A stretch of DNA of 64,000 bases, from the NCBI RefSeq assembly GCF_009931435.1, contig NZ_CP043414.1; one strand, 5' to 3'. The DNA is from Escherichia coli (GTDB taxonomy: Bacteria; Pseudomonadota; Gammaproteobacteria; Enterobacterales; Enterobacteriaceae). Every line of letters starts with the position of its first letter. The stretch's first letter is position 1. Shown here piece by piece: positions 15,264 through 54,655 of this stretch. The notes under the pieces are model-generated. The model was not told where the DNA came from, made no database searches, and saw only the letters and a list, made by a program, of their open reading frames with translations. The position numbers and the translations under genes were made by a program.

Positions 15264-15300
15264 CAGCGCAAAAAGGCTGGTGACTAAAAAGTCACCAGCC
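15264..15300 (-). terminator. rplL-rpoB intergenic attenuator (partial terminator)
   Basis: Hairpin GGCTGGTGACT-loop-AGTCACCAGCC followed by a U-run on the transcribed strand, in the known attenuator position between rplL and rpoB. Confidence 0.7.
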
Positions 15301-15339
15301 ATCAGCCTGATTTCTCAGGCTGCAACCGGAAGGGTTGGC

Positions 15340-27460: not shown

Positions 27461-27653
27461 TCACAACCCGAAGATGTTTCTTGCGATTCATCATCGTGTT
27501 GCGAAAATTTGAGAGACTCACGAACAACTTTCGTTGTTCAGTGTTTCAATTTTCAGCTTGATCCAGATTTTTAAAGAGCAAATATCTCAAACGTCACCCG
27601 AAGATGAGTTTTGAGATATTAAGGCAGGTGACTTTCACTCACAAACCAGCAAG

Positions 27654-37700: not shown

Positions 37701-37809
37701 GAAACGGAGCGGCACCTCTTTAACCCTTGAAGTCACTGCCCGTTTCGAGAGTTTCTCAACTCGAATAACTAAAGCCAACGTGAACTTTTGCGGATCTCCA
37801 GGATCCGCT
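37701..37809 (+). ncRNA. oxyS: OxyS small regulatory RNA
   Basis: GAAACGGAGCGGCACCTCTTTAACCCTTGAAGTCACTGCCCGTTTCGAGAGTTTCTCAACTCGAATAACTAAAGCCAACGTGAACTTTTGCGGATCTCCAGGATCCGC followed by a T-run; matches oxyS; divergent from oxyR. Confidence 0.9.
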
Positions 37810-37855
37810 TTTTTTTATTCTACAGGCCCACAGCAAGAGAGCCTGATAGTAACAG

Positions 37856-39139
37856 TTACTCAATCCGATCTTTGACAATAAAGAAGTAACACAGCGCCCC
37901 GGTGAATGTCACACAGGCCGCGATAACCAGCGCCAGATTAAACGAGTGCGTGGTATCCACTACCCAACCGGTTACGATCGGAGCAAAGGAAGCAAAAACA
38001 AAACTGCCAAAGTTTTGAATCCCGGCGATGGAAGCCACTTTTGTTTCTGACACCATCACCTGCACCAGTCCCCATGCAGATGTTCCCGCGAAATGCACGC
38101 AGAACAGCGCCATTGAGATAAACGCTACAGCCTGGGCTGGCGAGGAGGATTGCACGACCAGCAACGTGCCTAATGCCGACATCATCAAACCGCAGACAAT
38201 AGCCGTTTTACGCGTCTTCGCCAGGTCGTAGCCTTTTTTCGCCAGCCGATCGACAACAATACCGTTAACCCACATCCCGACCGCCGCCGCGAGGAAAGGA
38301 ATCGCCGCCACCCAACCGGTTTTCGCCAGACTGAAGCCTTGCTCGGCTTGTAAATAACCGGGTAACCACGCGATGTAGAGCCAACCGGTATAATTGACGC
38401 CAGAGAAACCTAAAATCATCCCCCAGGTTGTCCGATGCTTAAACAGCGCCAGCCACTCGCTAAATTGTAATTGTGGACGCGGTTTAACCGGCGCGGAGAG
38501 ATAGGTCCGTTCTTCGTCGGTCAGGACAAACTGCGCCCGGTTGCGATACCACGCGTACCAACAGATCCCAACCAGAATCCCCGCCACGCCGATGATGACG
38601 AACATTGCCCGCCAGCCCCATGCCAGCTGCATCAATACAAGAGCAGGAGGCGCAATAGCCTGACCGATAACGGTAGATGAGTTAAAAATCCCCAGCGCCG
38701 TGCCGCGTTCTTTTTGCGCATACCAGTCGGTGATCGACTTTACTCCCGCAGGCATAAATGGCGCTTCGCCAATACCCAGACCGATACGCATTAAAATAAA
38801 GTGGCTAAAAGAATTAACCATTCCTGTTAATGCCTGCATTAATGACCAGAATATTAAGCCTGCGCCTAAAACTATTCGTGGGCCAAAGCGGTCTAGCAAA
38901 ATACCGGAAGGGAGTTGTGAAAAACCATAAGACAGAGAAAATGCAGAAAGCAAAACGCCAAATTCTGTCGCCGATAATCCTAACTCGCCACGAATCGCTT
39001 CGCCTGCCACGCTCAATGACGAACGGTCGAGGAAATTAACGATCCCCGCCATAAATAATAAAACCAGCGTTACTGTCTGAATACGACGAATCCGTTGCGG
39101 TTTATTACCCGCAACACTGGTTGACACATCAACGTCCAT
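37856..39139 (-). CDS. MFS transporter, anion:cation symporter (ACS) family; sugar-acid (DgoT/ExuT/GudP-like) permease
   Basis: 427 aa, 12 predicted hydrophobic segments; N-terminal LLFMAGIVNFLDRSSLSVAG and GLGIGEAPFMPA motifs typical of ACS-family hexuronate/aldonate transporters. Confidence 0.8.
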   Translation of the reverse strand: MDVDVSTSVAGNKPQRIRRIQTVTLVLLFMAGIVNFLDRSSLSVAGEAIRGELGLSATEFGVLLSAFSLSYGFSQLPSGILLDRFGPRIVLGAGLIFWSLMQALTGMVNSFSHFILMRIGLGIGEAPFMPAGVKSITDWYAQKERGTALGIFNSSTVIGQAIAPPALVLMQLAWGWRAMFVIIGVAGILVGICWYAWYRNRAQFVLTDEERTYLSAPVKPRPQLQFSEWLALFKHRTTWGMILGFSGVNYTGWLYIAWLPGYLQAEQGFSLAKTGWVAAIPFLAAAVGMWVNGIVVDRLAKKGYDLAKTRKTAIVCGLMMSALGTLLVVQSSSPAQAVAFISMALFCVHFAGTSAWGLVQVMVSETKVASIAGIQNFGSFVFASFAPIVTGWVVDTTHSFNLALVIAACVTFTGALCYFFIVKDRIE

Positions 39140-39205
39140 TTTTAGCTCCTTGAGCGGAATTAATCGATTTGCTGACTATTCAGAAAATAATTAAGCGAAC
39201 CGTTA

Positions 39206-40417
39206 TTACCAGTTCCACAATGTGCCATCTTCCAGTCGTGCGACGGGGAGATACGCCGGGTCATACGGATATTTCGCCGCCAGTTTCTCATCGAAAGAAA
39301 TACCCAGCCCCGGTTCATCGCCTGGGTGCATATAACCTTCATCGAAGCGCCAGCTGTGCGGGAAGACTTCAAGCATTTGTTCGGAATAGCCCATGTACTC
39401 CTGAACACCAAAGTTTGGCACCCAGAGGTCAAAATGCAGCGCCGCCGCATGACAAACAGGCGATAAATCTGAAGGGCCATGCGAACCGGTACGTACCTGA
39501 TAAAGCGATGCAAAATCGGCAATCCGTCGCATCCCGGTAATGCCGCCTGCATGGGTAATCGTCGTGCGAATATAGTCAATCAGCTGCTCTTCGATTAACT
39601 GCTTGCAGTCCCAGATACTGTTAAACACTTCACCGACCGCAATCGGCGTCACAGTATGCTGGCGAATCAGACGAAAACATTCCTGGTTCTCGGCAGGCGT
39701 CGGATCTTCCATCCACAACAGGCGGTAATCCTCAATGCTCTTCCCAAAGCGCGCCGCTTCGATAGGAGTCAGGCGATGGTGCATGTCATGCAACAGATGT
39801 TCGTTAAAACCGAACTTATTACGCACCGCTTCAAATAACTTCGGTGTAAAATCGAGATACTTTTCTGAAGACCACAACTGCTCTTCCGGCCACAGGCCTT
39901 TGGTTGCCGGTTCATACGCCAGTCCTTTGCCCTTCGCCAGGCCATAAGTGGTTTGCATACCCGGTACACCGCACTGCACACGAATCGCCTTAAAGCCCAT
40001 CTGCTGGTGCTTTGCATAGTCTTCAAGGACTTCATCAATCGTGCGCCCGGTGGTGTGGCAATAAACCATCACGCCTTCACGAGAAGCCCCACCAAGCAGT
40101 TGATACAATGGCATATTTGCCGCTTTGGCTTTGATATCCCACAACGCCATATCAATGGCAGAAATGGCCGACATCGTGACGGGGCCACGTCGCCAGTAAG
40201 CACCTTTATAAAAGAATTGCCAGATATCTTCGATACGGCTGGCATCGCGGCCAATTAATTGTGGACAAAGATGATCTTTCAGATAAGAAGCGACCGACAA
40301 TTCGCGACCATTTAATGTGGCATCTCCCAATCCACAAATTCCGCTTGCAGTGGTTATTTTAAGCGTAACGAAATTACGTCCTGGGCAAGTAACAAAAACA
40401 TCTGCAGCAATAATTTT
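39206..40417 (-). CDS. Enolase-superfamily dehydratase, D-mannonate dehydratase (ManD/RspA-like) subgroup
   Basis: Track ORF 39206..40480; homologous start [59 protein letters not shown]...; very similar to E. coli RspA as I recall it. Confidence 0.85.
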
Positions 40418-40768
40418 CATTATTGCAATCTCCTGTGTTGTAAATAGACGCTTCAAACTTAATTTTACGCCTACTACCATACAAGAGAGAAAGGGCGATT
40501 ATTCAACCGTGATCACATTAAAAATAAAAATTTCCGCCGAGGAACAAAAATATCCTCAAATCTCACCTACACTATTAACTACCATCGTTAAAACAACGTG
40601 TTAAATAATCACATAACAAATTCCTTTAAGGAAAGGAGTTATAACAACAACAAAAGATAATCATATTTTACTTAATTCAATACGTATCGATAGGTTTATT
40701 TAAAAAGGATTTTTCGGAATGAGAGATGAAAAGAAGATACACAAGCAGGAAGAAATACGATTAATATT

Positions 40769-40904
40769 AGTTGCGGTAAGGGTAGCCGTTCCTCCCTTCC
40801 GCAACCCATTAACCGTTGAAGTCACAGACTATTTCAGGCATTTCTCAACTCAAAATAACGACAGCCAACGTGAACTTTATGGCTCTCCAGGATCTGCTTT
40901 GTTT
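40769..40904 (+). ncRNA. oxyS-like element: diverged second copy (paralog or relic) of the OxyS sRNA
   Basis: AACCGTTGAAGTCACAGACTATTTCAGGCATTTCTCAACTCAAAATAACGACAGCCAACGTGAACTTTATGGCTCTCCAGGATCTGCTTTGTTTT aligns at about 80 percent identity by eye to oxyS 37722-37817; a 5' stem-loop and a TAATAT -10-like box sit upstream; terminator stem is degenerate. Confidence 0.5.
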
Positions 40905-40908
40905 TCCA

Positions 40909-42387
40909 TCAAACAACGGAGCTCAGCGCACTGGCTACCTGTTTAAAGCGAGCAAACCGTCGCCTGAGCATGTGTGCTTTTTCTACATTCGGTTCAAGAC
41001 GAATCACGTTGAGCTGCGTAGCCTTCATGGCCTGTTTGAATCCAGAATAAGCCCCTCCTCCTACTGCCGCACACATTGCAGCCGCTCTACAACCTGACTG
41101 TTCAATATCGACAATTTCAAGAGGCATTTTGCTGGCATCACAAAACATCTGCATCCAGATTCTGGAATGCGTTGGCCCGCCAGAGAAACGAATCGTTTGC
41201 AATGACTTATCAATCTCAATAAGACGGTCCTGATGCAACAAATGAGAAAAGACAACGCCCTGATAAATAGCGTACACCAAATCTTCTCTTTTATGATGCC
41301 CACACAGCCCCAAAAATCCCCCGCTTAATGCCTCATGGTAATTCGAGCCAAACAACCACGGGAAAAAGAGAATATCATTCTGTTTCTCATACCCTCGTTC
41401 CACCCACTCATTAATCACCCGATAACTGTCAGGAAGACCCGGTAAAAATTGCTGCAAGAACCATGTTAAATTACTGGCTGATGTAGGGCTTCCCTCATGG
41501 GCGAAAAATGTACCTGGAATGCTAAATTTCCCCCATACATAGGGATAATCAGAAGGAATAATGCGATCAAAGATTCGCGTTGCAATTGACCAGGTGCCAG
41601 CAACCGCACTTAACGTTGTACTGTCATAGATGCCAGAAGTGAGCGCCGCACCAACGACATCAAAAACACCACCAAAAACAGGCGTTCCGGCGAGAAGCCC
41701 ACATTGGCTGGCTGCTTCAGATGTCACAAACCCAGCTAAATCAGCGGAGCCAATAATATCGGGAACCTTACCCGCAACTTCCTTAATCTCAAATAGGCGA
41801 AAAAGTTCAGCATCATAAGCACTGGTATATTGATTATAAAAATTACTGCCTGAAATATTGGTTTCTTCACAAGCCAGTTTGCCAGTAAGCCGTGAACGTA
41901 TGTAATCATGAACCATCAAAATGGTTCCGATGCGGCCATAATTGTCAGTCTCATGTTTTTTCAACCAATGCAATAGTGCTACAGGGTGCGATGGCCAGAG
42001 CTGTTGCAGACTACGGTGATAACTTTCGCGGTCAATTCCTTGTTCTTTCCAGCTTGCAACCAGTTGTTGTGCGCGAGAATCAGAGGAAACAATGCCGTGT
42101 CGTAAGGGCTTACCTTGCCGGTCGAGCAGGTACAAACCTTTACCATGAGCAGAAAAACTGATGCCATCAATCTGACTCGCAGTAATATTGTTATCTGACA
42201 TCGACAGTGAAATGACCTGGCACGTTACCTTCCATAACGCCTCCATGTCGCGTTCGCAAAAACCAGGACATGGGCTTAACAGAGGTAACGCCTGCGAAGA
42301 GACACCTATTTCACGTCCTTCTGCCGTATAAATTCCCGCTTTGGTTTCTGTACCACCTAAATCGACACCAATAAAATACCGCTCCAT
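40909..42387 (-). CDS. FGGY-family carbohydrate kinase (L-xylulose/3-keto-L-gulonate kinase LyxK-like)
   Basis: 492 aa MERYFIGVDLGGTETKAGIY... with FGGY N- and C-terminal signatures (HDY..., SGGPTHSRIWMQM); family assignment confident, substrate not. Confidence 0.85.
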   Translation of the reverse strand: MERYFIGVDLGGTETKAGIYTAEGREIGVSSQALPLLSPCPGFCERDMEALWKVTCQVISLSMSDNNITASQIDGISFSAHGKGLYLLDRQGKPLRHGIVSSDSRAQQLVASWKEQGIDRESYHRSLQQLWPSHPVALLHWLKKHETDNYGRIGTILMVHDYIRSRLTGKLACEETNISGSNFYNQYTSAYDAELFRLFEIKEVAGKVPDIIGSADLAGFVTSEAASQCGLLAGTPVFGGVFDVVGAALTSGIYDSTTLSAVAGTWSIATRIFDRIIPSDYPYVWGKFSIPGTFFAHEGSPTSASNLTWFLQQFLPGLPDSYRVINEWVERGYEKQNDILFFPWLFGSNYHEALSGGFLGLCGHHKREDLVYAIYQGVVFSHLLHQDRLIEIDKSLQTIRFSGGPTHSRIWMQMFCDASKMPLEIVDIEQSGCRAAAMCAAVGGGAYSGFKQAMKATQLNVIRLEPNVEKAHMLRRRFARFKQVASALSSVV

Positions 42388-42403
42388 GATCCCTCCTTAG
42401 TTT

Positions 42404-43267
42404 CTAAATATTATCCCAGCCGGCAAGGCGCATTTTCTCTTCAATCCATTGACGTGCATGAATAATTTCTAATAGAGGTTCCGTCGCTTTTTCTGTCCAC
42501 ATTTCTATCAGAAACGTTCCGCGATAATTAAGATTACGCAGGATCTTAAATAATTTAATAAAATCTACACACCCTTCACCAAAAGGAACGTCACGAAATT
42601 GCCCTGGAGAATCAGGCGTTACTGGGTACGTATCTTTAAGATGGATTGCGGCAATTCGATCAATCCCCTTTACCAGCTCACTTTCCAGTTCATTACCCCA
42701 TGCGGTCAGATTGCCAACATCCGGATAAACGGTAAACCAAGGGGAATTAATTTTTGTATCCAGGACTTTCCATTTACTAATAGAATTAATAAATGGCGTA
42801 TCCATGATCTCTACAGCACACATAACTTGTGCCGCTGCGGCCTGTTCAGCTGTCCAGGCCATCGCATCTTCAAACCAGGCGATAGTTTCTTCATTCTGCG
42901 GCTCATAATAAACGTCATAGCCTGCCAGTTGGATTGTTCGAATCCCCAAATCCTGCGCCAGGCGTAACGCCTTCAACATAATCGTACGTGCCTGCTGACG
43001 AGTATCTCTATCATGGCTACCAAATGGAAAACGCCGGTGAGCAGACAGGCACATTGTCGGAATACGGATCCCCGTTTGCTGAATGGCGCTAATAAGCTCC
43101 ATACGCTCGGTGAGCGACCAGTCCAGGCGGGCGAGTCGTTCATCATTCTCATCTACCGACATCTCAACAAAATCAAAACCGCAAGATTTAGCCAGGGCTA
43201 GTTTCTCTACCCAACTGGTATTCCTGGGTAGCGCTTTTTCATAAATACCTAACGGGTGGCGTCGCAT
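42404..43267 (-). CDS. Sugar-phosphate 3-epimerase of the xylose-isomerase-like TIM-barrel family (L-ribulose-5-phosphate 3-epimerase SgbU/UlaE-like)
   Basis: 287 aa MRRHPLGIYEKALPRNTSWVEKLALAKSCGFDFVEMSVDENDERLARLDWS...IRTIQLAGYDVYYE...HLKDT...FLIEMW; close resemblance to SgbU/UlaE as I recall them. Confidence 0.8.
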   Translation of the reverse strand: MRRHPLGIYEKALPRNTSWVEKLALAKSCGFDFVEMSVDENDERLARLDWSLTERMELISAIQQTGIRIPTMCLSAHRRFPFGSHDRDTRQQARTIMLKALRLAQDLGIRTIQLAGYDVYYEPQNEETIAWFEDAMAWTAEQAAAAQVMCAVEIMDTPFINSISKWKVLDTKINSPWFTVYPDVGNLTAWGNELESELVKGIDRIAAIHLKDTYPVTPDSPGQFRDVPFGEGCVDFIKLFKILRNLNYRGTFLIEMWTEKATEPLLEIIHARQWIEEKMRLAGWDNI

Positions 43268-44343
43268 TATTTTCCCTCACGAGTGATCAATTGTTGTTGA
43301 AAGATTTTCCGGCTCTTATTCATGTCACGCTGCAACTGCCATTTTTGTTTGATGAATTTAAATGCCAGTGCGGCGATCAATGTGATCCCCCATACCGCCA
43401 GATTGAAATGCAAACTAAGTCCCAACAGACTAAGGCCGGTAGCAATAACCTGAAGCACAAGTAAGGCACAAAAAACATGACTGACTTTACCCGCCCCACC
43501 GAATGGATCTGTGCCTCCCAATACAATTGCAAGAACCGTCAAGAGCAGATAGGAATCGCCATAGCCCATACGCGCCGAATTAAATCGCGCGAGCATAATA
43601 AGACCTGCTAATACACACAACATGCTGGATATAGCATATATAGCAATTAATACGCGGTCGGTGCGAATACCGCTAAACCATGTGGCGTTAATATTACTGC
43701 CACACATATAAATCGTTTTTCCCGTACGGGTTTTGCCGAGGAACAGAGCTAAAGCAACGGTGGTGACGATAAAAATTATCATCGGTACTGGGATCCCCAT
43801 GATAACTTCAGACCCAATACTGCGGACTACTGGTGGCATACCACTTAAAGCTGCCCCCTTAGTCAGGTAAATACCGATACCACTAATAATGGTCATGCTA
43901 CCCAATGTGACCAAAATAGGGTGAGCGCCTATATGAGAAATAATTGACCCAGTAATAGCTCCAATGATGATGGCAATAAGCATCGCCCCGACAATAGCCA
44001 GGAAGAGCCAAAACAACTGACTACCTGTAGATGCATCTGCGGGTACATATTGAATCAACAGCCAGGCCATAAACAGGCTGGTCAGATTCGCAGTACCGAT
44101 GATTGCCAGATTGAGCCCCCCGCTCAACATGGGTATAAACATCGCAAACGTGAGCAACCCAAGCTCTGGCAATTGAAATGCAATGCTCAGAAAAGTATTG
44201 CCGGTGAAAAAACGCCCCGGCATTACCAGACTAAATAACACCACCGCAATAAAACATATTGATAATAAGCCTGAACTGGTACCATCTAGTGGAAAAAATA
44301 TCCGCTTGTTCATTTCGATCCTCCCGTTAGACGAAACCAACAT
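43267..44343 (-). CDS. ABC transporter permease (CUT2, RbsC/LsrD-like)
   Basis: 358 aa polytopic membrane protein; stop/start overlaps neighbours within the ABC operon. Confidence 0.8.
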   Translation of the reverse strand: MLVSSNGRIEMNKRIFFPLDGTSSGLLSICFIAVVLFSLVMPGRFFTGNTFLSIAFQLPELGLLTFAMFIPMLSGGLNLAIIGTANLTSLFMAWLLIQYVPADASTGSQLFWLFLAIVGAMLIAIIIGAITGSIISHIGAHPILVTLGSMTIISGIGIYLTKGAALSGMPPVVRSIGSEVIMGIPVPMIIFIVTTVALALFLGKTRTGKTIYMCGSNINATWFSGIRTDRVLIAIYAISSMLCVLAGLIMLARFNSARMGYGDSYLLLTVLAIVLGGTDPFGGAGKVSHVFCALLVLQVIATGLSLLGLSLHFNLAVWGITLIAALAFKFIKQKWQLQRDMNKSRKIFQQQLITREGK

Positions 44344-45319
44344 CAGTTTCTTTACGTTTTTTGTAATGGGTCACACAAATCGCCGAGACAATAACCACTC
44401 CAATAACGATATTGACGAAATAACTCGAGATGCCAATCAAATTAAGGCCGTTTTTAAGAATACCGATAAGAAATACGCCCATAAGCGTACCAATGACCGT
44501 ACCACGTCCGCCTGATAAACTGGCACCGCCCAATACCGCTGCAGCCAGCACATCCAACTCTCCGCCAACCAATGCATTCGGCACAACTTCACTCATACGA
44601 TAAGCTTGCAGCATTCCACCAATTGCTGCAGCGGCACCAAGATAACCATAAGCAAACAGATAAATTAGCGACACCCGAATCCCAATACGTCTTGCTGATT
44701 CGGTATTCCCTCCCACGGCATAAAGCTGACGCCCAATATGGGTTTTGTTCATTATCATCCACGTCAGAAATGCCATTCCCAGCATAACCACTAACGGTAA
44801 TCCGATCTGGTAATCTTCTCCGCCAAATTCAAAACTCAGGAAAGAACGCTGCGTAATCCACCAATCCGGTAAATCGTAAATACTGTGGCCATTAGTCAAC
44901 CACATCAACATACCGAACAGTAGCGACTGCATACTAATCGTAATGATGATGGAAACGACATTAAGGTAATAAATAAGAATAGCGTTTATCAAACCAAAAA
45001 TGATGCCAAGAAAAACAGCAAACACCAGACAGAAAAATGGATTTGATAGCGTTTCATTAAGCAGTAACGACGCCACAACATATTGCACAACCGAAGCTAC
45101 TGCTGCAAAAGAGATATCAATTCCGCCAGTAACCAATACGACAAATAATCCGAGGGCGAAAATACCCGTTACGGCATAACTTTCCGAGAGATCGAGCAAG
45201 TTCTGTATTGATAAAAACTCATCGCTCATGATGGAAAAAAATACCAGCATGAGAACAATGACCCATCCTAACCAAGCTTCGACTGAACGAGGAAACCGCA
45301 GCCGCATAAAGCTAACCAT
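44327..45319 (-). CDS. ABC transporter permease (CUT2, RbsC/LsrC-like)
   Basis: 330 aa polytopic membrane protein with GGIDISFAAV and GGxSLxGGRGT motifs typical of ribose-type permeases. Confidence 0.8.
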   Translation of the reverse strand: MVSFMRLRFPRSVEAWLGWVIVLMLVFFSIMSDEFLSIQNLLDLSESYAVTGIFALGLFVVLVTGGIDISFAAVASVVQYVVASLLLNETLSNPFFCLVFAVFLGIIFGLINAILIYYLNVVSIIITISMQSLLFGMLMWLTNGHSIYDLPDWWITQRSFLSFEFGGEDYQIGLPLVVMLGMAFLTWMIMNKTHIGRQLYAVGGNTESARRIGIRVSLIYLFAYGYLGAAAAIGGMLQAYRMSEVVPNALVGGELDVLAAAVLGGASLSGGRGTVIGTLMGVFLIGILKNGLNLIGISSYFVNIVIGVVIVSAICVTHYKKRKETDVGFV

Positions 45320-46829
45320 TAATCACCTCCGCCAACTGCTGCTCGGTATAATTCGAAGGCAACAGCTCATTAATAATCTTTCCGCGCTTCATATGAAAAA
45401 TACGATCGCAGTTATAATAAGCTTCTGGTGCTTCATCAGTAATTAATATCACTGAAATACCCACACCTGAAAGCCGATGAATAAGCTGGTAAATACTATC
45501 TTTTGCGCCAATATCTACACCTACCGTTGGCGCATCCAGAATTAAAACCTTAGGTCGTGTTAAAATCCATTTAGCCAGGACAACCTTTTGTTGATTGCCG
45601 CCAGATAGCGTTGAAAGTGGATTATTTGGATCGGTGACTTTAATATCCAAATCCTGGATCCACTCCTTGACTAAGGTTTCTTTTCGATTTTCATCAATAA
45701 ACCCCGATGCCGTCTTTAAACGATCCAGAATCGAGAGCACCATATTATCGCTGATAGATTGGGGTAATACGGCCCCCAGTGTCAGGCGATCTTCTGAAAC
45801 ATATGCTATTCCCAGTTTTACCGCATGCGTGTTGTCTTTAATTGTAACGGGCTTACCTTCCAGATAAATATCACCACTATCTGGTCGAGTAATACCGAAA
45901 AGACTCAATGCTAATTCAGTTCTCCCCGCACCAAGTAAACCACACAATCCCAGAACCTCGCCCTGGTGTAGTTTTAGAGAAACATCTTCAAATTGCCCTT
46001 TTCTGCATAATTTGTTTAGTTCAAGGACTACTTTGCCTTCAACGCTATTTGGTAGCTTCTTCTGGTGGACTATAGTTTTTCCGGTCATTAACTCAGTAAT
46101 ATCGCCCGGAGAAAGTTGATTGGCAGCCCACGTTCCAATTATCTCTCCATCACGGATGACCGTAATCCGATCTGAAATTTCCTTAACTTCATCAAGGCGG
46201 TGGCTAACAAAAACTACGGTAATATTTTTATCGCGTAAGTAATTCACTGTGCGTAGTAATTGATTAACTTCTGTACGCGTCAATGATGCCGTTGGCTCGT
46301 CCATGATGACTAACCGGGCATCGGCAATCAGAGCCCGGCAAATCGCGACCTGTTGGCGTTGTGCAATCGGCAAATGTTGTACTAACGCATCAGGATCGAG
46401 ATTGAATTGCAGCTCCTGAATTATTTTCTGCGATACATCTCGAAGTTGTTTTTTTCTGTGCAGCCCTAAATATCCCTTCAGGTTGTATTCAAAAGCGATA
46501 TTTTCAGCAACAGAAAGATTTGGGAATAAAGAAAGATCCTGATATATCACCTGAATACCCAGTTCCCGAGCTTTATCAGGAGAAAGACGAGTCCAGGACT
46601 TACCATCTATAATAATTTCACTTCCCGAATCAGGGACATAAACACCACACAGCGTTTTGATCAGAGTACTTTTACCACACCCATTCGCACCAGCAAGACA
46701 ATGAACCTCACCTTTATTTAAGGTAAGATTGATATTCTTTAGAGCCCTATGGCCACCGAAACTTTTCGTTAGTGACCTTAGCGTCACTAATGGTTGCTCC
46801 GCATTCTTCTCTATAATATGAGGCATCAT
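45312..46829 (-). CDS. Sugar ABC transporter ATP-binding protein with duplicated ABC domains (RbsA/LsrA-like)
   Basis: 505 aa; first Walker A GANGCGKST, LSGGNQQK-type signature, second degenerate P-loop GLLGAGRTE as in CUT2 ATPases. Confidence 0.85.
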   Translation of the reverse strand: MMPHIIEKNAEQPLVTLRSLTKSFGGHRALKNINLTLNKGEVHCLAGANGCGKSTLIKTLCGVYVPDSGSEIIIDGKSWTRLSPDKARELGIQVIYQDLSLFPNLSVAENIAFEYNLKGYLGLHRKKQLRDVSQKIIQELQFNLDPDALVQHLPIAQRQQVAICRALIADARLVIMDEPTASLTRTEVNQLLRTVNYLRDKNITVVFVSHRLDEVKEISDRITVIRDGEIIGTWAANQLSPGDITELMTGKTIVHQKKLPNSVEGKVVLELNKLCRKGQFEDVSLKLHQGEVLGLCGLLGAGRTELALSLFGITRPDSGDIYLEGKPVTIKDNTHAVKLGIAYVSEDRLTLGAVLPQSISDNMVLSILDRLKTASGFIDENRKETLVKEWIQDLDIKVTDPNNPLSTLSGGNQQKVVLAKWILTRPKVLILDAPTVGVDIGAKDSIYQLIHRLSGVGISVILITDEAPEAYYNCDRIFHMKRGKIINELLPSNYTEQQLAEVING

Positions 46830-46892
46830 AATATTCCTGAATACGACTAAAGGAATTCCGGGTCAAATTTGACCCGGTGATTTACGGTAAAA

Positions 46893-47897
46893 TTACAAGC
46901 CTAGCTTCACTAAACGTCGTGTATTTTCAAGATCGAGCTTTTCTGGATTATCACTATAAATAGTGTTGTTATTAACCTTGATCTCGCCCATATCACCGAT
47001 TTTTACACCGTCTTTAATAGGTTCACCGTTCATCATTGCCGTCGCAACCTGGACAAAAACCTTACCCGCAATCATAGGGTTTGAAATATATCCCCCATCA
47101 ATGGCACCTTTTTCGAGTAGCTTAATTCCCTGACCTGGAGTGAAGGTTCCAAAAACGCAAATTGCATCATTTTTCTTCCGCTTATCAATAGCACGCCCCG
47201 CACCAATTGGTCCTTGTGAACCAAATGACATAATGCCTTTAAGATCTTTATATTTAGACATTAAATCGTTCGTCGTGCGCATTGAATCATCCACCGACTC
47301 AGCAACACCAAAACGATCTTCAACCAACGTCATATTTGGATAATGTTCTTTTTGATAGGCAATCGCGGCATTGGCCCAGTCATTTACCAAAGGCACAGTC
47401 AGACTGCCGACAAACATGGCGTATTTACCTTCTTCGCCCATACACTTCGCCATATCTTTCATATGATTGGCACCCATTGTCTGGGTATTTAACAACTCAA
47501 AATCCCAATCTGCATTTTTTTGATCTGGTGATTCGTGGGTAATAACTTTAATACCGGCTTCTTGTGCACGCTTAAGTACAGGTTCAAGAACCTTTGCATC
47601 GTTAGGAACAACACCAATAACATCCACTTTTCGTGCAATTAAATCTTCAATCGCCCGAACCTGTTCAGCTGGATCTGCCGTTGTAGGGCCGACCTGCCAT
47701 GCATCAACCCCCAATAGTTTTCCTTCATTTTTAATGCCTTGTTCCATCACATTAAACCAGGGAATTCCACCGACTTTTACTACTACCCCCATCGTAAAAG
47801 GTTTATTCGCTTTTTGTGATGTTACAGTCTGATCAGCCCATGCAGCAGTGGAAGATAATACGGTAGCAATAAGGCAGGGTAAGATTAATTTTTTCAT
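46893..47897 (-). CDS. Periplasmic sugar-binding protein (PBP type I, LsrB/RbsB-like) with signal peptide
   Basis: 334 aa MKKLILPCLIATVLSSTAAWA (signal peptide) followed by a two-lobe sugar-binding fold pattern. Confidence 0.8.
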   Translation of the reverse strand: MKKLILPCLIATVLSSTAAWADQTVTSQKANKPFTMGVVVKVGGIPWFNVMEQGIKNEGKLLGVDAWQVGPTTADPAEQVRAIEDLIARKVDVIGVVPNDAKVLEPVLKRAQEAGIKVITHESPDQKNADWDFELLNTQTMGANHMKDMAKCMGEEGKYAMFVGSLTVPLVNDWANAAIAYQKEHYPNMTLVEDRFGVAESVDDSMRTTNDLMSKYKDLKGIMSFGSQGPIGAGRAIDKRKKNDAICVFGTFTPGQGIKLLEKGAIDGGYISNPMIAGKVFVQVATAMMNGEPIKDGVKIGDMGEIKVNNNTIYSDNPEKLDLENTRRLVKLGL

Positions 47898-48019
47898 CGT
47901 AATTTCCTTAAGAAATAGTTCAGGTGTCAGGAAAACTCGATATAATATCGACCTGACTATTTATATAATTTATAATCCCTTAGGCATTGATTAATAATTT
48001 AGACAATAAATAACGCCTA

Positions 48020-48829
48020 TTATTTATCAACCTCCACAATGTTTAATTGTGGAAATTGTGTTCGATACCGAGTATCTGTACAAACATTAGTCACCAGAAT
48101 ATCGATTTCATCCAGCGTGCATATTTTACTAAATGCATACTGTTCAAACTTAGTGGAGTCGACCAGCAATATTTTTTGTCCTGACACCTGAAGCATCACC
48201 TGTTTAAGTCTGGCATTAATTTCACTGCCATCGCGGACACCATTCCCCAGATTCAACCCCTGGCATGAAAAGAAAAAACTGTTGATTTGAAAATTTCGGA
48301 TCGCACTCTCTGCAACCGGGCCATGAAAATCATCATGTCGCTCAGAATACTCACCACCGATACCAATAATTCGAACTCGATCACGGCAAGCTAACGCCTG
48401 AATTATCCGTAATGAATTTGTAACTACGGTAACATCTATATCGGGAATTTGACGAGCTAAAAACCAACAAGTACTACTGTTATCCATTAAAATACAATCA
48501 CCAGGGTGAATAAATTGCAATGCGGCCTTCGCAATTCTGGCTTTTATATCAGGATTTTCTTCAGTCCGTTTACGGAATGATTCCGCACGATCGATACTAT
48601 TATCTTGCCACGCATTATCGGCGAGCATAACCGGAGCGCTATCAGATGAATCCAGAGCGACCGCGCCACCAAAGCTACGGATTAACTTTTTGTTGCGCTC
48701 CAGTACCGTTAAATCCCGACGAATTGTCTCAGGAGACGCTTTAAATAATCGTGATAATTCAGTTACCCGCACAGCACCTTGTTTTTGTACATGTGCGCAT
48801 ATCATTTTATGGCGCTCTGCCTGCAACAT
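48020..48829 (-). CDS. DeoR/GlpR-family transcriptional regulator
   Basis: 269 aa; N-terminal HTH (VTELSRLFKASPETIRRDLTVLE) and C-terminal DeoR sugar-phosphate-binding domain; first gene of the minus-strand operon. Confidence 0.85.
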   Translation of the reverse strand: MLQAERHKMICAHVQKQGAVRVTELSRLFKASPETIRRDLTVLERNKKLIRSFGGAVALDSSDSAPVMLADNAWQDNSIDRAESFRKRTEENPDIKARIAKAALQFIHPGDCILMDNSSTCWFLARQIPDIDVTVVTNSLRIIQALACRDRVRIIGIGGEYSERHDDFHGPVAESAIRNFQINSFFFSCQGLNLGNGVRDGSEINARLKQVMLQVSGQKILLVDSTKFEQYAFSKICTLDEIDILVTNVCTDTRYRTQFPQLNIVEVDK

Positions 48830-49282
48830 AGTATCGGTCCGTTATTATCAAATTAGCATGCTTATATAATTAACTGTTCCCTCATAAAATAAAGTGATAG
48901 GAATCAAGATTCATTTTATAATTATAATCGCAAACAGGAATGGTGATCTTTATCACAAATTAAATTGAGAACACTCTACTATTTGACATTACTTTGAGAT
49001 ATCGGTCACTAAATAAGTCTTATTCTGCCATCTAACGAAAAATTTAAATACAAAAACAAAAATAATCGGGCATAGCAATCGCTTCCATTCATGACCGAAT
49101 ACGCCCGAATAAAACCGTTTATACCCACTTATCCTCTTTCGTTGCCTTCTTACATGCCTTGAATATTTTACATTTCTTATATTCAGCGTAATTTAGGAAA
49201 CATAATTTATGAGCAAAAAAAGCCCAAACTCAAAAGTTAAAGTTTATTTATATAATACATACAGATTATCGTGGAGTTAAAA

Positions 49283-49975
49283 ATGGATATGCTAAAGGAA
49301 AAAGTTCTTGCTGCGAATTTATCATTACCCCTTCATCAGTTAGTGACGTTTACCTGGGGAAATGTTAGTGGTGTTGATCGCGAAAAAGGTGTCATGGTTA
49401 TTAAACCTTCTGGGGTCGAATACAGCCAAATGGGCATTGCAGATATGGTGGTAGTGGATTTACAAAGTGGTGAAGTTATTGATGGACACAGGAAACCCTC
49501 TTCAGACACCGATACTCATCTGGCGCTATACCGTGCTTTCCCGGATATTGGTGGTATCGTTCATACCCATTCCCGACACGCCACAATATGGGCTCAGGCC
49601 GGAAAAGATCTCACGGCCTTTGGGACAACCCACGCTGATTATTTCTACGGCACTATCCCCTGTACACGCCCCATGAAGGATGACGAAATTAATGGACAAT
49701 ATGAATATGAAACGGGGCGAGTGATTATTGAAACGTTCAGACAACGAGAAATATCTCCCGCTGACATTCCGGCTGTTTTAGTAAACAGTCATGGCCCCTT
49801 TGCCTGGGGAACTGATCCCGCGAACGCCGTGCATAACGCCGTTGTACTTGAAGAAATTGCCTATATGAATCTCTTTACACAACAACTACAGCCCCATCTT
49901 ACGGCTATTCAACAGCCTCTACTGGATAAGCATTTTTTACGCAAGCATGGTGCCAATGCTTATTACGGGCAGTAA
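49283..49975 (+). CDS. L-ribulose-5-phosphate 4-epimerase (class II aldolase fold; AraD/SgbE/UlaF paralog)
   Basis: Track ORF 49271..49975; about three-quarters identical by eye to AraD ([31 protein letters not shown]...[14 protein letters not shown]...HGPFAWG...[18 protein letters not shown]); start chosen by alignment, alternative ATGs at 49271 and 49289. Confidence 0.85.
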
Positions 49976-50024
49976 CCCTCTTAGCATGGCCTGGCGTTTT
50001 GCCAAGCCATAAATCGCCTAAGAC

Positions 50025-51398
50025 TTACTCCAACCGCGCCTGCGCAAAAGCAATCGCCTGCGCCACCTGCTGCGGTGAGACGCCGCCTTTTGCCGCACGC
50101 TTGTCGAGGCACGATTGCAGCGACAGAATCGGATAGACATCTTCGCCAATCACCTGACTGAATTTCTGCAACTCACTGAGCGGCAGATCTTCCAGCGGTT
50201 TGCCCTGACGAATGGCTTCCACCACCGCTTCACCAACAATATGGTGCGCCTCGCGGAACGGCACACCTTTCGCCACCAGGTAATCCGCCAGTTCAGTGGC
50301 GTTCGCATACCCCTGCTGCGCCGCTTCCTGGCAACGTGGGCGTTTCACCTGAATGCCGTCCAGCACCAGCGCCGCCATATGCAGGCAGTCCAGCCAGGTA
50401 TCGAGCGCGTCGAATAAGCCCTCTTTGTCTTCCTGCATATCTTTGTTGTAAGCCAGCGGCAAACCTTTCAGCGTCATCATCATGCCAGTCAACGCGCCCT
50501 GAACACGACCGCATTTACCCCGAATCAGCTCCAGCGCATCCGGGTTTTTCTTCTGCGGCATTAATGATGAACCGGAAGTCACGCGATCAGAAAGCTCCAC
50601 AAAACCCGCTTCGCCGGTGTTAAAGAAAATCAGATCTTCGGCAAAACGCGACAAATGCACCATACCGATAGCGGCGGCAGAAAGCAGTTCCAGCACGTGG
50701 TCGCGGTCAGAAACGCTGTCGAGACTGTTACGGGTCGCCGAGGCAAAGCCCAGCCAGCCTGCTAACTGTTCACGGTCGATTTCATAAGCCGTTCCCGCCA
50801 GTGCGCCACAGCCTAACGGGCTGACATCCAGACGCTTAAGCGCATCCTGCAAACGACTTTCATCACGCGCCAGCATCTCAACATAGGCCAGGCACCAGTG
50901 CGCGAACGTCACCGGCTGGGCGCGTTGCAGGTGAGTGTAACCAGGCATTACCGCGTCCTGATTATTCTGCGCGGTCTCGACCAGAGCGGATTGTAACTGT
51001 CGGTTAGCCGTCAGTAACTCGCTAACGGTATCTTTGCACCACAGTTTCAGGTCAGTCGCTACCTGATCATTACGGCTACGCCCGGTGTGCAGTTTTTTGC
51101 CTAACTGGCCCACTTTGTCGATCAGTTTGCCTTCTACCCAGCTATGGATATCTTCAGCGTCGCTTTCAAGAATTTGTTGTGGTCTGGCGCGAACATCTTC
51201 CAGCAGCACATTGAGCGCCTCTTCCAGTTGCACCTGTTCTTCTGCGGTTAACACGCCTACCGTTACCAGCGCTTTGGACCAGGCCACAGAGCCAACAATA
51301 TCCTGCTCCGCCAGACGGTAATCAAAGCGCAGTGAGTCGTTGAATTGTTTAAACCGTTGATCTGCTGCCTGGGTAAAACGCCCGCCCCAAAGTGCCAT
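50025..51398 (-). CDS. argH: Argininosuccinate lyase
   Basis: 457 aa [45 protein letters not shown]... Confidence 0.97.
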
Positions 51399-54556: not shown

Positions 54557-54655
54557 CAGGCTGGATAAGGCGTTTACGCCGCATCCGGCACCGTTGTCAA
54601 ACGCCAGCGCCGCAATAATGTCGGATGCGATGCTTACGCATCTTATCCGACCTAC
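54557..54655. repeat. REP elements (BIME-like pair) between argE and ppc
   Basis: GCAGGCTGGATAAGGCGTTTACGCCGCATCCGGC and GTCGGATGCGATGCTTACGCATCTTATCCGACCTAC: typical REP palindromes in opposite orientations. Confidence 0.65.

Follow-up and report, generated by a model that had tools for sequence, protein, structure and literature searches.

The 453-bp gap between a DeoR/GlpR-family regulator gene and an araD-like gene of Escherichia coli is probably the divergent control region of an accessory pentulose-type sugar island. It would consist of a leftward promoter, P_L, with CRP-type boxes; an array of half-sites for the regulator; and a rightward promoter, P_R, followed by a small ORF without function. 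The start sites of P_L and P_R, the assignment of proteins to sites, the direction of control, and the inducer are all inferred from the sequence. An earlier note on this DNA had proposed divergent promoters and DeoR operators in this interval, and the comparison upholds it: promoter cores, three CRP-type boxes, and a locus-specific array are kept in sequence and spacing across seven genera. The gap is an ordinary type of catabolic control region—previously uncharacterised, and no surprise to a specialist in catabolic operons.

The window, that is, the whole stretch of 64,000 nucleotides analysed, carries the intergenic region at 48830-49282 (no strand assigned). The regulator gene lies to its left on the minus strand at 48020-48829 and encodes, by Pfam and annotation, an HTH_DeoR domain (PF08220, E = 4.5e-15) and a DeoRC domain (PF00455, E = 7.3e-50). 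The araD-like L-ribulose-5-phosphate 4-epimerase gene lies to its right on the plus strand at 49283-49975 (RefSeq), its product scoring 414 bits against NCBIfam TIGR00760, above the cut-off. The start codon of this gene is ATG 49283 and not GTG 49271, according to both RefSeq and the N-terminal sequences of 18 orthologues. It is preceded by a GGAG ribosome-binding site at 49273-49276, the two together spanning 49273-49285 on the plus strand (RefSeq, orthologues), and GGAG, GAGG, or GGGG followed by ATG is kept among the orthologues. The gap has a G+C content of 0.30 compared with 0.39-0.48 for the flanking genes and 0.52-0.62 for argH; the island has about 0.41 and the surrounding genome region about 0.55. 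The surrounding 34 kb of annotated sequence have five divergent gaps, and this one is the longest. Binding of nucleoid proteins to its AT-rich DNA is plausible.

The island is present in 146 of 5426 complete E. coli genomes. Its products are an ABC transporter, an FGGY kinase, and L-ribulose-5-phosphate 3- and 4-epimerases, and the gene order on the left side is regulator first, then ABC transporter, 3-epimerase, and kinase genes. Loci with a 63-86% identical regulator number 19 and occur in Atlantibacter, Citrobacter, Yersinia, Erwinia, Pantoea, Affinibrenneria, and Providencia; in 18 of the 19, the epimerase gene is divergent from the regulator across a gap of 423-628 bp. The long gap is hence itself kept in 18 of 18 orthologous loci, and the long, AT-rich DeoR-araD interval that the earlier note described stands. 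The comparison set consists of 20 gaps: the 18 orthologues from the seven genera and two E. coli alleles. The regulator is not equivalent to FucR, SrlR, AgaR, GlpR, UlaR, or DeoR, since every named NCBIfam equivalog score stays below the curated cut-off. Its best matches, all under the cut-off, are FucR, SrlR, AgaR, and GlpR, with FucR barely ahead of the repressors; the score is 161 bits against the FucR model (cut-off 259), which shows that the regulator is not FucR, and 112 bits against the UlaR model (cut-off 244). Neither the binding protein nor the regulator, when searched against the PDB, pointed to a ligand or a DNA complex, and literature searches on the GlpR operator consensus and on the island found no direct source.

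P_L is predicted on the minus strand from a -10 hexamer, AATTAT, at 48866-48871, with a putative start near 48859; it features a -10 only and no -35. A hexamer of the form nAnnAT lies at identical distance from box C1 in 20 of 20 gaps and in all seven genera, and this fixed distance centres C1 at -41.5 from the putative P_L start. The E. coli alleles are identical over 48771-48921. Box C1, AGTGATAGGAATCAAG, at 48893-48908 (centre 48900.5; this and the other two boxes are given without strand), is CRP-like and present in all 20 gaps, and its right half is always TCAAG or TCATG. It matches the CRP core only in part, with always three to four mismatches across the gaps, and could bind something other than CRP. 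Box C2, GGTGATCTTTATCACA, at 48942-48957 (centre 48949.5, about -90.5 from the putative P_L start), is CRP-type with one mismatch to TGTGA-N6-TCACA, the palindromic core of the 22-bp CRP site, and is placed exactly 49 bp from C1 in 20 of 20 gaps; the sole difference between the E. coli alleles within this box falls in its N6 spacer. Box C3, TGAGATATCGGTCACT, at 48995-49010 (centre 49002.5, about -143.5), likewise CRP-type, has two mismatches to the consensus and a distance of 102 bp to C1, which 17 of 20 gaps keep exactly and the other three miss by 1 bp; here as well, the allele differences are confined to the spacer.

Taken together, 34 C2 and C3 boxes give the consensus TAATGTGATTTAAATCACATTA. 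A matrix made from the C2 and C3 boxes only gives C2 as the top match in the 64-kb window (21.5 bits) and C1 as the third best (15.1 bits). On the K-12 lac region, the same matrix places the classical lac CRP site at the top with 15.0 bits, the next best match reaching 2.1. CRP can activate from -41.5 at class II promoters and from about -60 to -100 at upstream sites. P_L would most likely depend on cAMP-CRP through C1 at -41.5 in class II fashion, aided by the boxes near -90.5 and -143.5. It would transcribe the regulator gene and probably read on into the transporter and enzyme genes; the latter may have a promoter of their own between the regulator and binding-protein genes. In Erwinia, a terminator follows the regulator gene.

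The array is built from 10-bp units with the half-site consensus WATGMCCGAWT. An inverted copy, ATGCCCGATT, lies on the minus strand at 49064-49073 and matches ATGMCCGAWT exactly. With a matrix trained only on Providencia gaps, this copy is the best match in the whole window, at 16.2 bits. On the plus strand at 49091-49130, there follow four direct 10-bp half-sites—ATGACCGAAT, ACGCCCGAAT, AAAACCGTTT, and ATACCCACTT—a strong pair and then a pair that is degenerate but in phase; the E. coli alleles are identical in the first three. All 20 gaps feature one to two inverted copies and then two to four direct copies with an exact 10-bp period, and the offset from inverted to direct copies is always 17, 27, 37, or 47 bp. 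The array is 233-296 bp from the regulator start codon in every genus scanned. The Providencia-only matrix ranks positions 49062-75, 49089-102, 49099-112, and 48998-49011 as 1, 3, 8, and 12 of the 128 kb scanned, and within the island (37800-50030), it gives no further match of at least 11 bits. A generic repeat search returned many AT-rich chance pairs, the only meaningful one being I11 (49063-74 / 49100-11). In E. coli, neither the surroundings of P_L nor the interval separating the regulator gene from the binding-protein gene contains a half-site of at least 6 bits, and both predicted core promoters are free of half-site overlap. The P_R spacer of Citrobacter contains an operator-like ATTCGG, which was set aside because the matrix does not score it and the other genera do not keep it.

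Half-sites phased at about 10 bp, located by a promoter, and travelling with the regulator gene are the pattern of DeoR-family operators, and the array is most likely the operator of the adjacent DeoR-family regulator, to judge from the sequence. It would bind an oligomer, probably a tetramer, of this protein. Candidate operators are hence found where the earlier note had thought of palindromic ones, but they are not simple palindromes: they are phased 10-bp direct repeats with one to two inverted copies upstream. That another factor—a global regulator or nucleoid protein—binds the array, with the true operators of the regulator elsewhere or too weak to see, is quite unlikely. The distance of more than 200 bp between the E. 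coli array and the regulator's own predicted promoter would agree with such a factor. However, the motif accompanies the regulator gene in all seven genera and keeps a fixed distance from it, strong half-site matches in the 64-kb window are confined to this gap, and phased 10-bp units with a WATGnnCGW core are the form reported for DeoR/GlpR-family proteins. H-NS, IHF, and Fis prefer AT-rich sequences, unlike the G+C-rich TGMCCG core of the half-site.

P_R is predicted on the plus strand at 49167-49194, with a -35 TTTACA (49167-49172), a 16-bp spacer, and a -10 TAATTT (49189-49194), which would place the start near 49201. It would be a weak sigma-70-type promoter, about 36-47 bp beyond the array and with roughly 80 nt left to the epimerase gene. 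A 35-bp block at this position is invariant in E. coli, Citrobacter, and Atlantibacter, the E. coli alleles are identical over 49142-49197, and all seven genera retain the pattern TTT, 16 bp, TAnnnT; the -35 and -10 are poor in most of them. According to the alignments, a stretch of 11 bp at 49152-49162 (no strand assigned) between the array and the P_R -35 is found only in E. coli and adds one helical turn. The array covers roughly -71 to -137 from the predicted P_R start in E. coli and is about 11 bp closer in the other genera. Sigma-70 promoters combine -35 and -10 hexamers at a spacing of 16-18 bp; a simple consensus scan for them gave two sites against 2.8 expected by chance, neither of them P_L or P_R, and was uninformative. 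The plus-strand match GTGATA, 17 bp, TATAAT (48894-48922) was rejected as a promoter, not being conserved outside E. coli. Two adjacent TATAAT hexamers occur at 48917-48928.

Over the whole window, the count of TGTGA-N6-TCACA with up to two mismatches is at chance level, as is that of ATGMCCGAWT with up to one mismatch, so the argument rests on clustering and conservation. Another notion is that the gap is an AT-rich, horizontally acquired spacer silenced by H-NS, its motifs incidental. The low G+C content of the gap (0.30, compared with about 0.41 for the island and about 0.55 for the genome region) suits this notion, as do promoter-like hexamers such as the adjacent TATAAT pair and consensus scans at chance level. 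It is nevertheless highly improbable: conserved blocks with base-pair-exact spacing persist across genera amid otherwise unalignable sequence, and E. coli substitutions avoid the predicted elements, with none of 25 inter-allele differences falling in their 91 bases (hypergeometric P = 0.003). Binding of H-NS could coexist with specific sites but does not explain them.

In the proposed control region, the regulator on the array would set the activity of P_R, and possibly that of P_L as well through CRP-bent DNA. It would probably respond to a phosphorylated intermediate, for example, L-xylulose-5-phosphate or L-ribulose-5-phosphate. By analogy, repression that is relieved by the inducer is slightly favoured as the direction of control. 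This leaning is because of the characterised family members in enterobacteria, most of which are repressors (DeoR, GlpR, SrlR, AgaR, GatR, and UlaR). Core promoters free of operators are unusual for a simple repressor and leave the substrate-specific control of P_L unexplained.

The same anatomy could, with a lesser but real probability, belong to an activator, which, given the sugar phosphate, would recruit RNA polymerase to the weak P_R while bound to the array. All of the array precedes the -35, and no half-site covers either core promoter, a placement that fits an activator almost as well as a repressor. In addition, most genera have poor -35 and -10 hexamers at P_R, and the sole length difference between array and promoter is the 11 bp that keep the helical face. 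The best NCBIfam match is the activator FucR, albeit below the cut-off and barely ahead of repressors. Against activation stand the prevalence of repressors among the characterised enterobacterial relatives, a P_R position that is itself only predicted, and repressors known to act from upstream sites by looping or polymerase contact. DeoR-family activators are known, for example, FruR of Spiroplasma and Faecalibacterium (PMC11906611).

A further arrangement joins both promoters. The module of about 350 bp—C1, the CRP boxes at +49 and +102 bp from it, and the array—might form one higher-order nucleoprotein complex, in which CRP bends would bring the distant oligomer to P_L while the same oligomer activates P_R. 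Such a complex is unlikely; if true, it would explain the operator-free core promoters and give the DeoR family a counterpart of the MalT-CRP malEp-malKp complex. The regulator array of the module is more than 200 bp from the leftward promoter, and three CRP-induced bends are invoked.

The layout can be compared with that of known systems. Common to it and the glp regulon (glpFK; glpTQ-glpACB) are a DeoR/GlpR-family regulator, a series of neighbouring operators in 10-bp phase, and a dependence on cAMP-CRP, the last two being predicted for the island. GlpR operators are tandem 20-bp palindromes that overlap the promoter and have the consensus WATGTTCGWT. The half-site of the present array, TATGMCCGAW, shares the frame W-A-T-G-n-n-C-G-W with units of K-12 glpFK such as AATGAGCGTT. 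It differs in the central dinucleotide, MC here and TT in GlpR; the repeats are direct and head-to-tail, the inverted copy stands apart from them by 17-47 bp, and no predicted core promoter is overlapped. The regulator itself is far below the GlpR equivalog cut-offs. At E. coli glpFK, four tandem GlpR operators occur together with CRP sites (PMC2753651). FruR of the Bacillota, also of the DeoR family, features four 10-bp direct repeats, TGAWWGWTTT, at fruRKA, takes a sugar phosphate as effector, and represses or activates with a sign differing between species (PMC11906611). The likeness lies in the regulator gene being first in the operon and in the 10-bp direct repeats. The differences are that the FruR repeats span the -35 and have another motif, and that the system has a PTS instead of an ABC transporter and no CRP.

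The fucAO/fucPIKUR system of E. coli has a class II aldolase-family gene divergent from an operon of transporter, kinase, and DeoR-family regulator, with a long, CRP-dependent gap. The same divergent layout is found here, and FucR is the best, sub-cut-off NCBIfam match of the regulator; in contrast, the enzyme here is a true L-ribulose-5-phosphate 4-epimerase (TIGR00760) and not an aldolase, and the pathway is another one. The ula and yia-sgb systems of E. coli K-12 are controlled by UlaR or YiaJ with CRP and IHF, UlaR being a DeoR-family repressor at a divergent CRP-dependent gap. They share with the island the route from L-xylulose-5-phosphate via L-ribulose-5-phosphate to D-xylulose-5-phosphate, run by the paralogues UlaE/SgbU and UlaF/SgbE. 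They differ in that the regulator here is not UlaR, uptake is by an ABC transporter, and decarboxylase and lactonase are missing.

The 23-codon ORF within the leader of the epimerase gene arose by chance and has no function. It lies on the plus strand at 49209-49280, from ATG 49209 to TAA 49280; coordinates and translation, as first described, were reproduced. Its stop had been thought to overlap the start region of the epimerase. It does not overlap the coding sequence: with the epimerase start at ATG 49283, the stop falls between ribosome-binding site and ATG, 2 nt before the latter. Of the 146 complete E. coli genomes with the island, 137 have ACG in place of the ATG of the ORF, and in this allele in-frame TAG and TAA codons lie just upstream with no alternative start. 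All four inter-allele differences inside the ORF alter the protein, one of them by removing the start codon. Conservation in orthologous loci, on which the earlier note had let the case of the small ORF depend, is missing: none of the 18 has a related small ORF, and leader length ranges between about 80 and about 250 nt. The gap holds three ATG-ORFs of at least 23 codons, where simulated sequence with the same dinucleotides gives a mean of 1.8 (P = 0.26), in line with the alternative already raised that the ORF arose by chance in AT-rich DNA. A ribosome-binding-like AGGAAA lies upstream of its ATG.

The leader peptide that had been suggested is not borne out. That the ORF is translated and controls the epimerase by coupling or attenuation is scarcely credible, even though this allele does contain the ORF, with its end between ribosome-binding site and epimerase start codon, and one locus of Citrobacter amalonaticus has an unrelated 22-codon ORF overlapping the epimerase start. 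Besides the lost start codon, the protein-altering differences, the lack of related ORFs, and the number of such ORFs in random sequence, the RNA of the leader stands against it: its fold shows no unusual structure (z = -0.11), a terminator scan found none, and Rfam gave nothing in the gap in a whole-window scan at the gathering threshold and only chance-level matches (E >= 1.8) in a permissive scan of 48600-49500. The Rfam scans hence indicate no riboswitch or known small RNA in the gap. If P_R is correct, moreover, the ATG of the ORF would be only about 8 nt from the 5' end and AGGAAA would precede the transcript start and remain untranscribed. Attenuator leader peptides such as trpL, pheL, and tnaC are likewise short ORFs just upstream of a structural gene, but the present ORF features neither conservation nor regulatory codons nor a terminator/anti-terminator, and its start is missing in most strains. 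It needs no follow-up. A second small ORF, MTEYARIKPF... (49091-49162), was also rejected as a gene: MTEY... recurs in other genera while the remainder diverges in sequence and length, and the ORF is not taken as coding because its conserved part is the 10-bp-periodic operator ATGACCGAATAC.

The analysis yields a testable regulatory map for an uncharacterised sugar island, with promoter positions, three CRP boxes, and a new motif, WATGMCCGAWT, in a phased layout. The natural ATG and ACG alleles of the small ORF are a ready control. The operator-free core promoters pose a small puzzle, that of DeoR-family action from a distance. The island is rare in E. coli (146 of 5426 genomes) yet common to Citrobacter, Atlantibacter, Yersinia, Erwinia, Pantoea, and Providencia, and the WATGMCCGAWT motif can be used to find other targets of the regulator in the carrier genomes.

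The control region lies in the E. coli chromosome on an accessory island with its insertion site between oxyS/oxyR and argH; 146 of 5426 complete E. coli genomes carry this island, on which no paper was found. Leftward from the gap, the island encodes a DeoR/GlpR-family regulator (48020–48829, minus strand), a periplasmic binding protein, an ABC ATPase, and two permeases; further left follow an L-ribulose-5-P 3-epimerase and an FGGY kinase, and then manD and an MFS transporter. To the right lies a single araD-like L-ribulose-5-P 4-epimerase gene facing argH. The regulator belongs to its family by domain make-up, and the NCBIfam equivalog profiles assign it to none of FucR, SrlR, AgaR, GlpR, UlaR, or DeoR. 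The island flanks are at 37701–37809 and 50025, with oxyS (Rfam RF00035, 133 bits) on one side and the argH 3′ end on the other, which are adjacent in K-12. The island likewise adjoins argH in Citrobacter and Atlantibacter, which reflects either a shared insertion site or island transfer via recombination in the flanking genes.

The regulator and epimerase genes are separated by a gap of 453 bp (48830–49282) with a G+C content of 0.30, in agreement with the long AT-rich interval described in the earlier note. The start codon of the epimerase gene is ATG 49283, preceded by GGAG as ribosome-binding site (49273–49276, plus strand); GTG 49271, chosen by the longest-ORF rule, was rejected since RefSeq annotation and orthologs give ATG 49283. 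Nineteen loci were fetched from Atlantibacter, Citrobacter, Yersinia massiliensis, Erwinia, Pantoea, Affinibrenneria, and Providencia, with encoded regulators 63–86% identical, and the epimerase gene is divergent across a gap of 423–628 bp in 18 of them. Most gap sequence is unalignable between genera, but it contains five conspicuous elements whose spacing is exact to the base pair.

The predicted leftward promoter P_L features a −10-like hexamer nAnnAT (AATTAT in the window; 48871 to 48866, minus strand) at a constant distance from the CRP-like box C1 (AGTGATAGGAATCAAG, 48893–48908) in 20 of 20 gaps, namely the 18 orthologous gaps and two E. coli alleles. P_L has no −35 element. If transcription starts 7 nt beyond the −10, near 48859, C1 is centered at −41.5, the class II CRP position. 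Two further CRP-type boxes, C2 (48942–48957, about −90.5) and C3 (48995–49010, about −143.5), keep distances of exactly 49 bp and 102 bp to C1 throughout the 20 gaps, except that C3 is displaced by 1 bp in three of them. Together, 34 C2 and C3 boxes give the consensus TAATGTGATTTAAATCACATTA. On 1 kb of the K-12 lac region, their matrix places the classical lac CRP site on top (15.0 bits versus 2.1 for the next), and over the 64-kb window C2 ranks first, C1 third, and C3 fourth. P_L would depend on CRP, with additional CRP sites in tandem upstream, and would drive the regulator gene. Between C1 and C2, two adjoining perfect TATAAT hexamers (48917–48928, plus strand) occur in E. coli only and probably represent a spurious resemblance to a promoter in AT-rich DNA. 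In Providencia rettgeri PROV023 and P. alcalifaciens PAL-1, the regulator leader carries two or three tandem units of ~19 bp, (C)GTGGAAAGAATGTTT..., so that 101–120 bp instead of about 65 bp separate C1 and the start codon.

Transcription from P_L probably continues beyond the regulator gene, given that in E. coli no terminator lies between this gene and the binding-protein gene, a gap of 122 bp (47898–48019). This gap features a two-tier hairpin GTCAGG-TCGATAT-T-ATATCGA-GTTTT-CCTGAC (47926–47957, minus strand) that is not followed by a T-run. Citrobacter and Atlantibacter retain the hairpin with compensatory changes (CCGAT/ATCGG versus CCAAT/ATTGG) and have a common box, CAATRCCAGAG..GTTGAAATAAATAA, upstream of it. 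Erwinia has an intrinsic terminator directly after the regulator gene, and Pantoea appears alike by eye. A separate promoter for the transporter and enzyme genes, or a site of RNA processing, may therefore lie here. At the far operon end, a second long gap (40481–40908) separates the manD-like and kinase genes by 428 bp according to the longest ORF in the window or 488 bp according to RefSeq. It contains a CRP-like box (40499–40520, 10.8 bits with the C2/C3 matrix) and a G+C-rich inverted repeat, GTTGCGGTAAGGG...CCCTTCCGCAAC, and may be the junction between two separately acquired modules. A whole-window Rfam scan returned naRNA4 (a REP-type element, 54559–54652), StyR-44 beside the 23S rRNA gene (27468–27576), 'P26' (15274–15335), an rRNA operon, tRNAs, and TPP and cobalamin riboswitches, all unconnected with the control region.

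Between the CRP-type boxes and the epimerase gene lies an array of 10-bp half-sites with the consensus TTATGMCCGAWTAT over 14 positions. The window has one inverted copy (49064–49073, minus strand) and direct copies at 49091, 49101, 49111, and 49121 (plus strand), the first two strong and the last two degenerate but in phase. Every genus features one or two inverted and two to four direct copies with a period of exactly 10 bp, and the inverted-to-direct offset is always 17, 27, 37, or 47 bp. A matrix built solely from Providencia ranks four sites in the gap of the window 1st, 3rd, 8th, and 12th in 128 kb scanned. Exact matches to the core ATGMCCGAWT occur only twice in 64 kb, both in the gap and 27 bp apart, and the island holds no further site of at least 11 bits. 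The half-site motif appears to be new.

The predicted rightward promoter P_R consists of a −35 TTTACA (49167–49172), a spacer of 16 bp, and a −10 TAATTT (49189–49194, plus strand), and would drive the epimerase gene. Its 35-bp block does not vary among E. coli, Citrobacter, and Atlantibacter, and the pattern TTT, 16 bp, TAnnnT is recognizable in all genera. Between array and block, E. coli alone carries an extra 11 bp (49152–49162), one helical turn. Between the two E. coli alleles, the gap shows 25 differences, none of them within the 91 element bases (hypergeometric P = 0.003); they are located in the CRP-box spacers, between elements, and at the 5′ end of leader and 23-codon ORF. Compared with the other allele, 47280–50830 is a mosaic: divergence is about 1% in the regulator and binding-protein genes, zero in 48771–48921, 5–9 per 100 bp in the gap from 48922 on, 2–3% in the epimerase gene, and up to 7% in the 3′ part of argH, which suggests a recombination boundary within the control region.

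The 23-codon ORF (49209–49280) exists with the translation given in the earlier note, but its stop falls between the GGAG and the epimerase ATG rather than overlapping the start. A role as leader peptide does not hold up. The ATG belongs to the rare allele of the window (nine genomes) and is ACG in the dominant alleles (133 genomes, plus four with a close variant), where TAG and TAA stand in frame immediately upstream and no alternative in-frame start exists; all three remaining differences within the ORF alter an amino acid. A related ORF is absent from all 18 orthologous gaps (seven genera), most of which lack any ORF at that position. The epimerase leader varies from about 80 to about 250 nt, is alignable only among close relatives, and folds no better than shuffles (z = −0.11); neither a terminator nor a credible Rfam match was found in the gap. 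With P_R predicted to start near 49201, the ATG would be only about 8 nt downstream, and the AGGAAA preceding it would thus be untranscribed. The gap holds three ATG-ORFs of at least 23 codons versus 1.8 in simulated sequence of the same composition (P = 0.26). The ORF is a chance ORF. A second 23-codon ORF (49091–49162, MTEYARIKPF...) has a start, MTEY... or MPEY..., that recurs in Pantoea and Providencia; this was rejected as a coding sign, since the recurrence results from conservation of the operator repeats ATGACCGAATAC. The kept start of a short ORF can hence arise purely at the DNA level.

The divergent promoters and DeoR operators proposed earlier are matched by conserved promoter-like elements and the repeat array, the latter probably bound by an oligomer of the adjacent regulator. 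The arrangement of the array is unlike the palindromes of GlpR. The frame W-A-T-G-n-n-C-G-W is common to the array and to units visible in the K-12 glpFK region, the published GlpR consensus being WATGTTCGWT. The effector would be a phosphorylated intermediate, as is usual in the DeoR family; the encoded kinase, 3-epimerase, and 4-epimerase make L-xylulose-5-P or L-ribulose-5-P obvious candidates. We lean slightly toward repression, the usual habit of the family. Activation is only somewhat less likely: the array lies wholly upstream of the P_R −35 (in E. coli at about −71 to −137), both core promoters are free of overlapping half-sites, and this position, together with a weak promoter and a length change that preserves the helical face, suits an activator or a looping mechanism. 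FruR of Bacillota, a DeoR-family member encoded first in its operon, uses four 10-bp direct repeats and represses or activates depending on the species (PMC11906611). A layout of the same kind as the array and CRP boxes has been described at glpFK, where GlpR has four adjacent operators together with CRP (PMC2753651). The region is a genuine, tidy but conventional catabolic control region.
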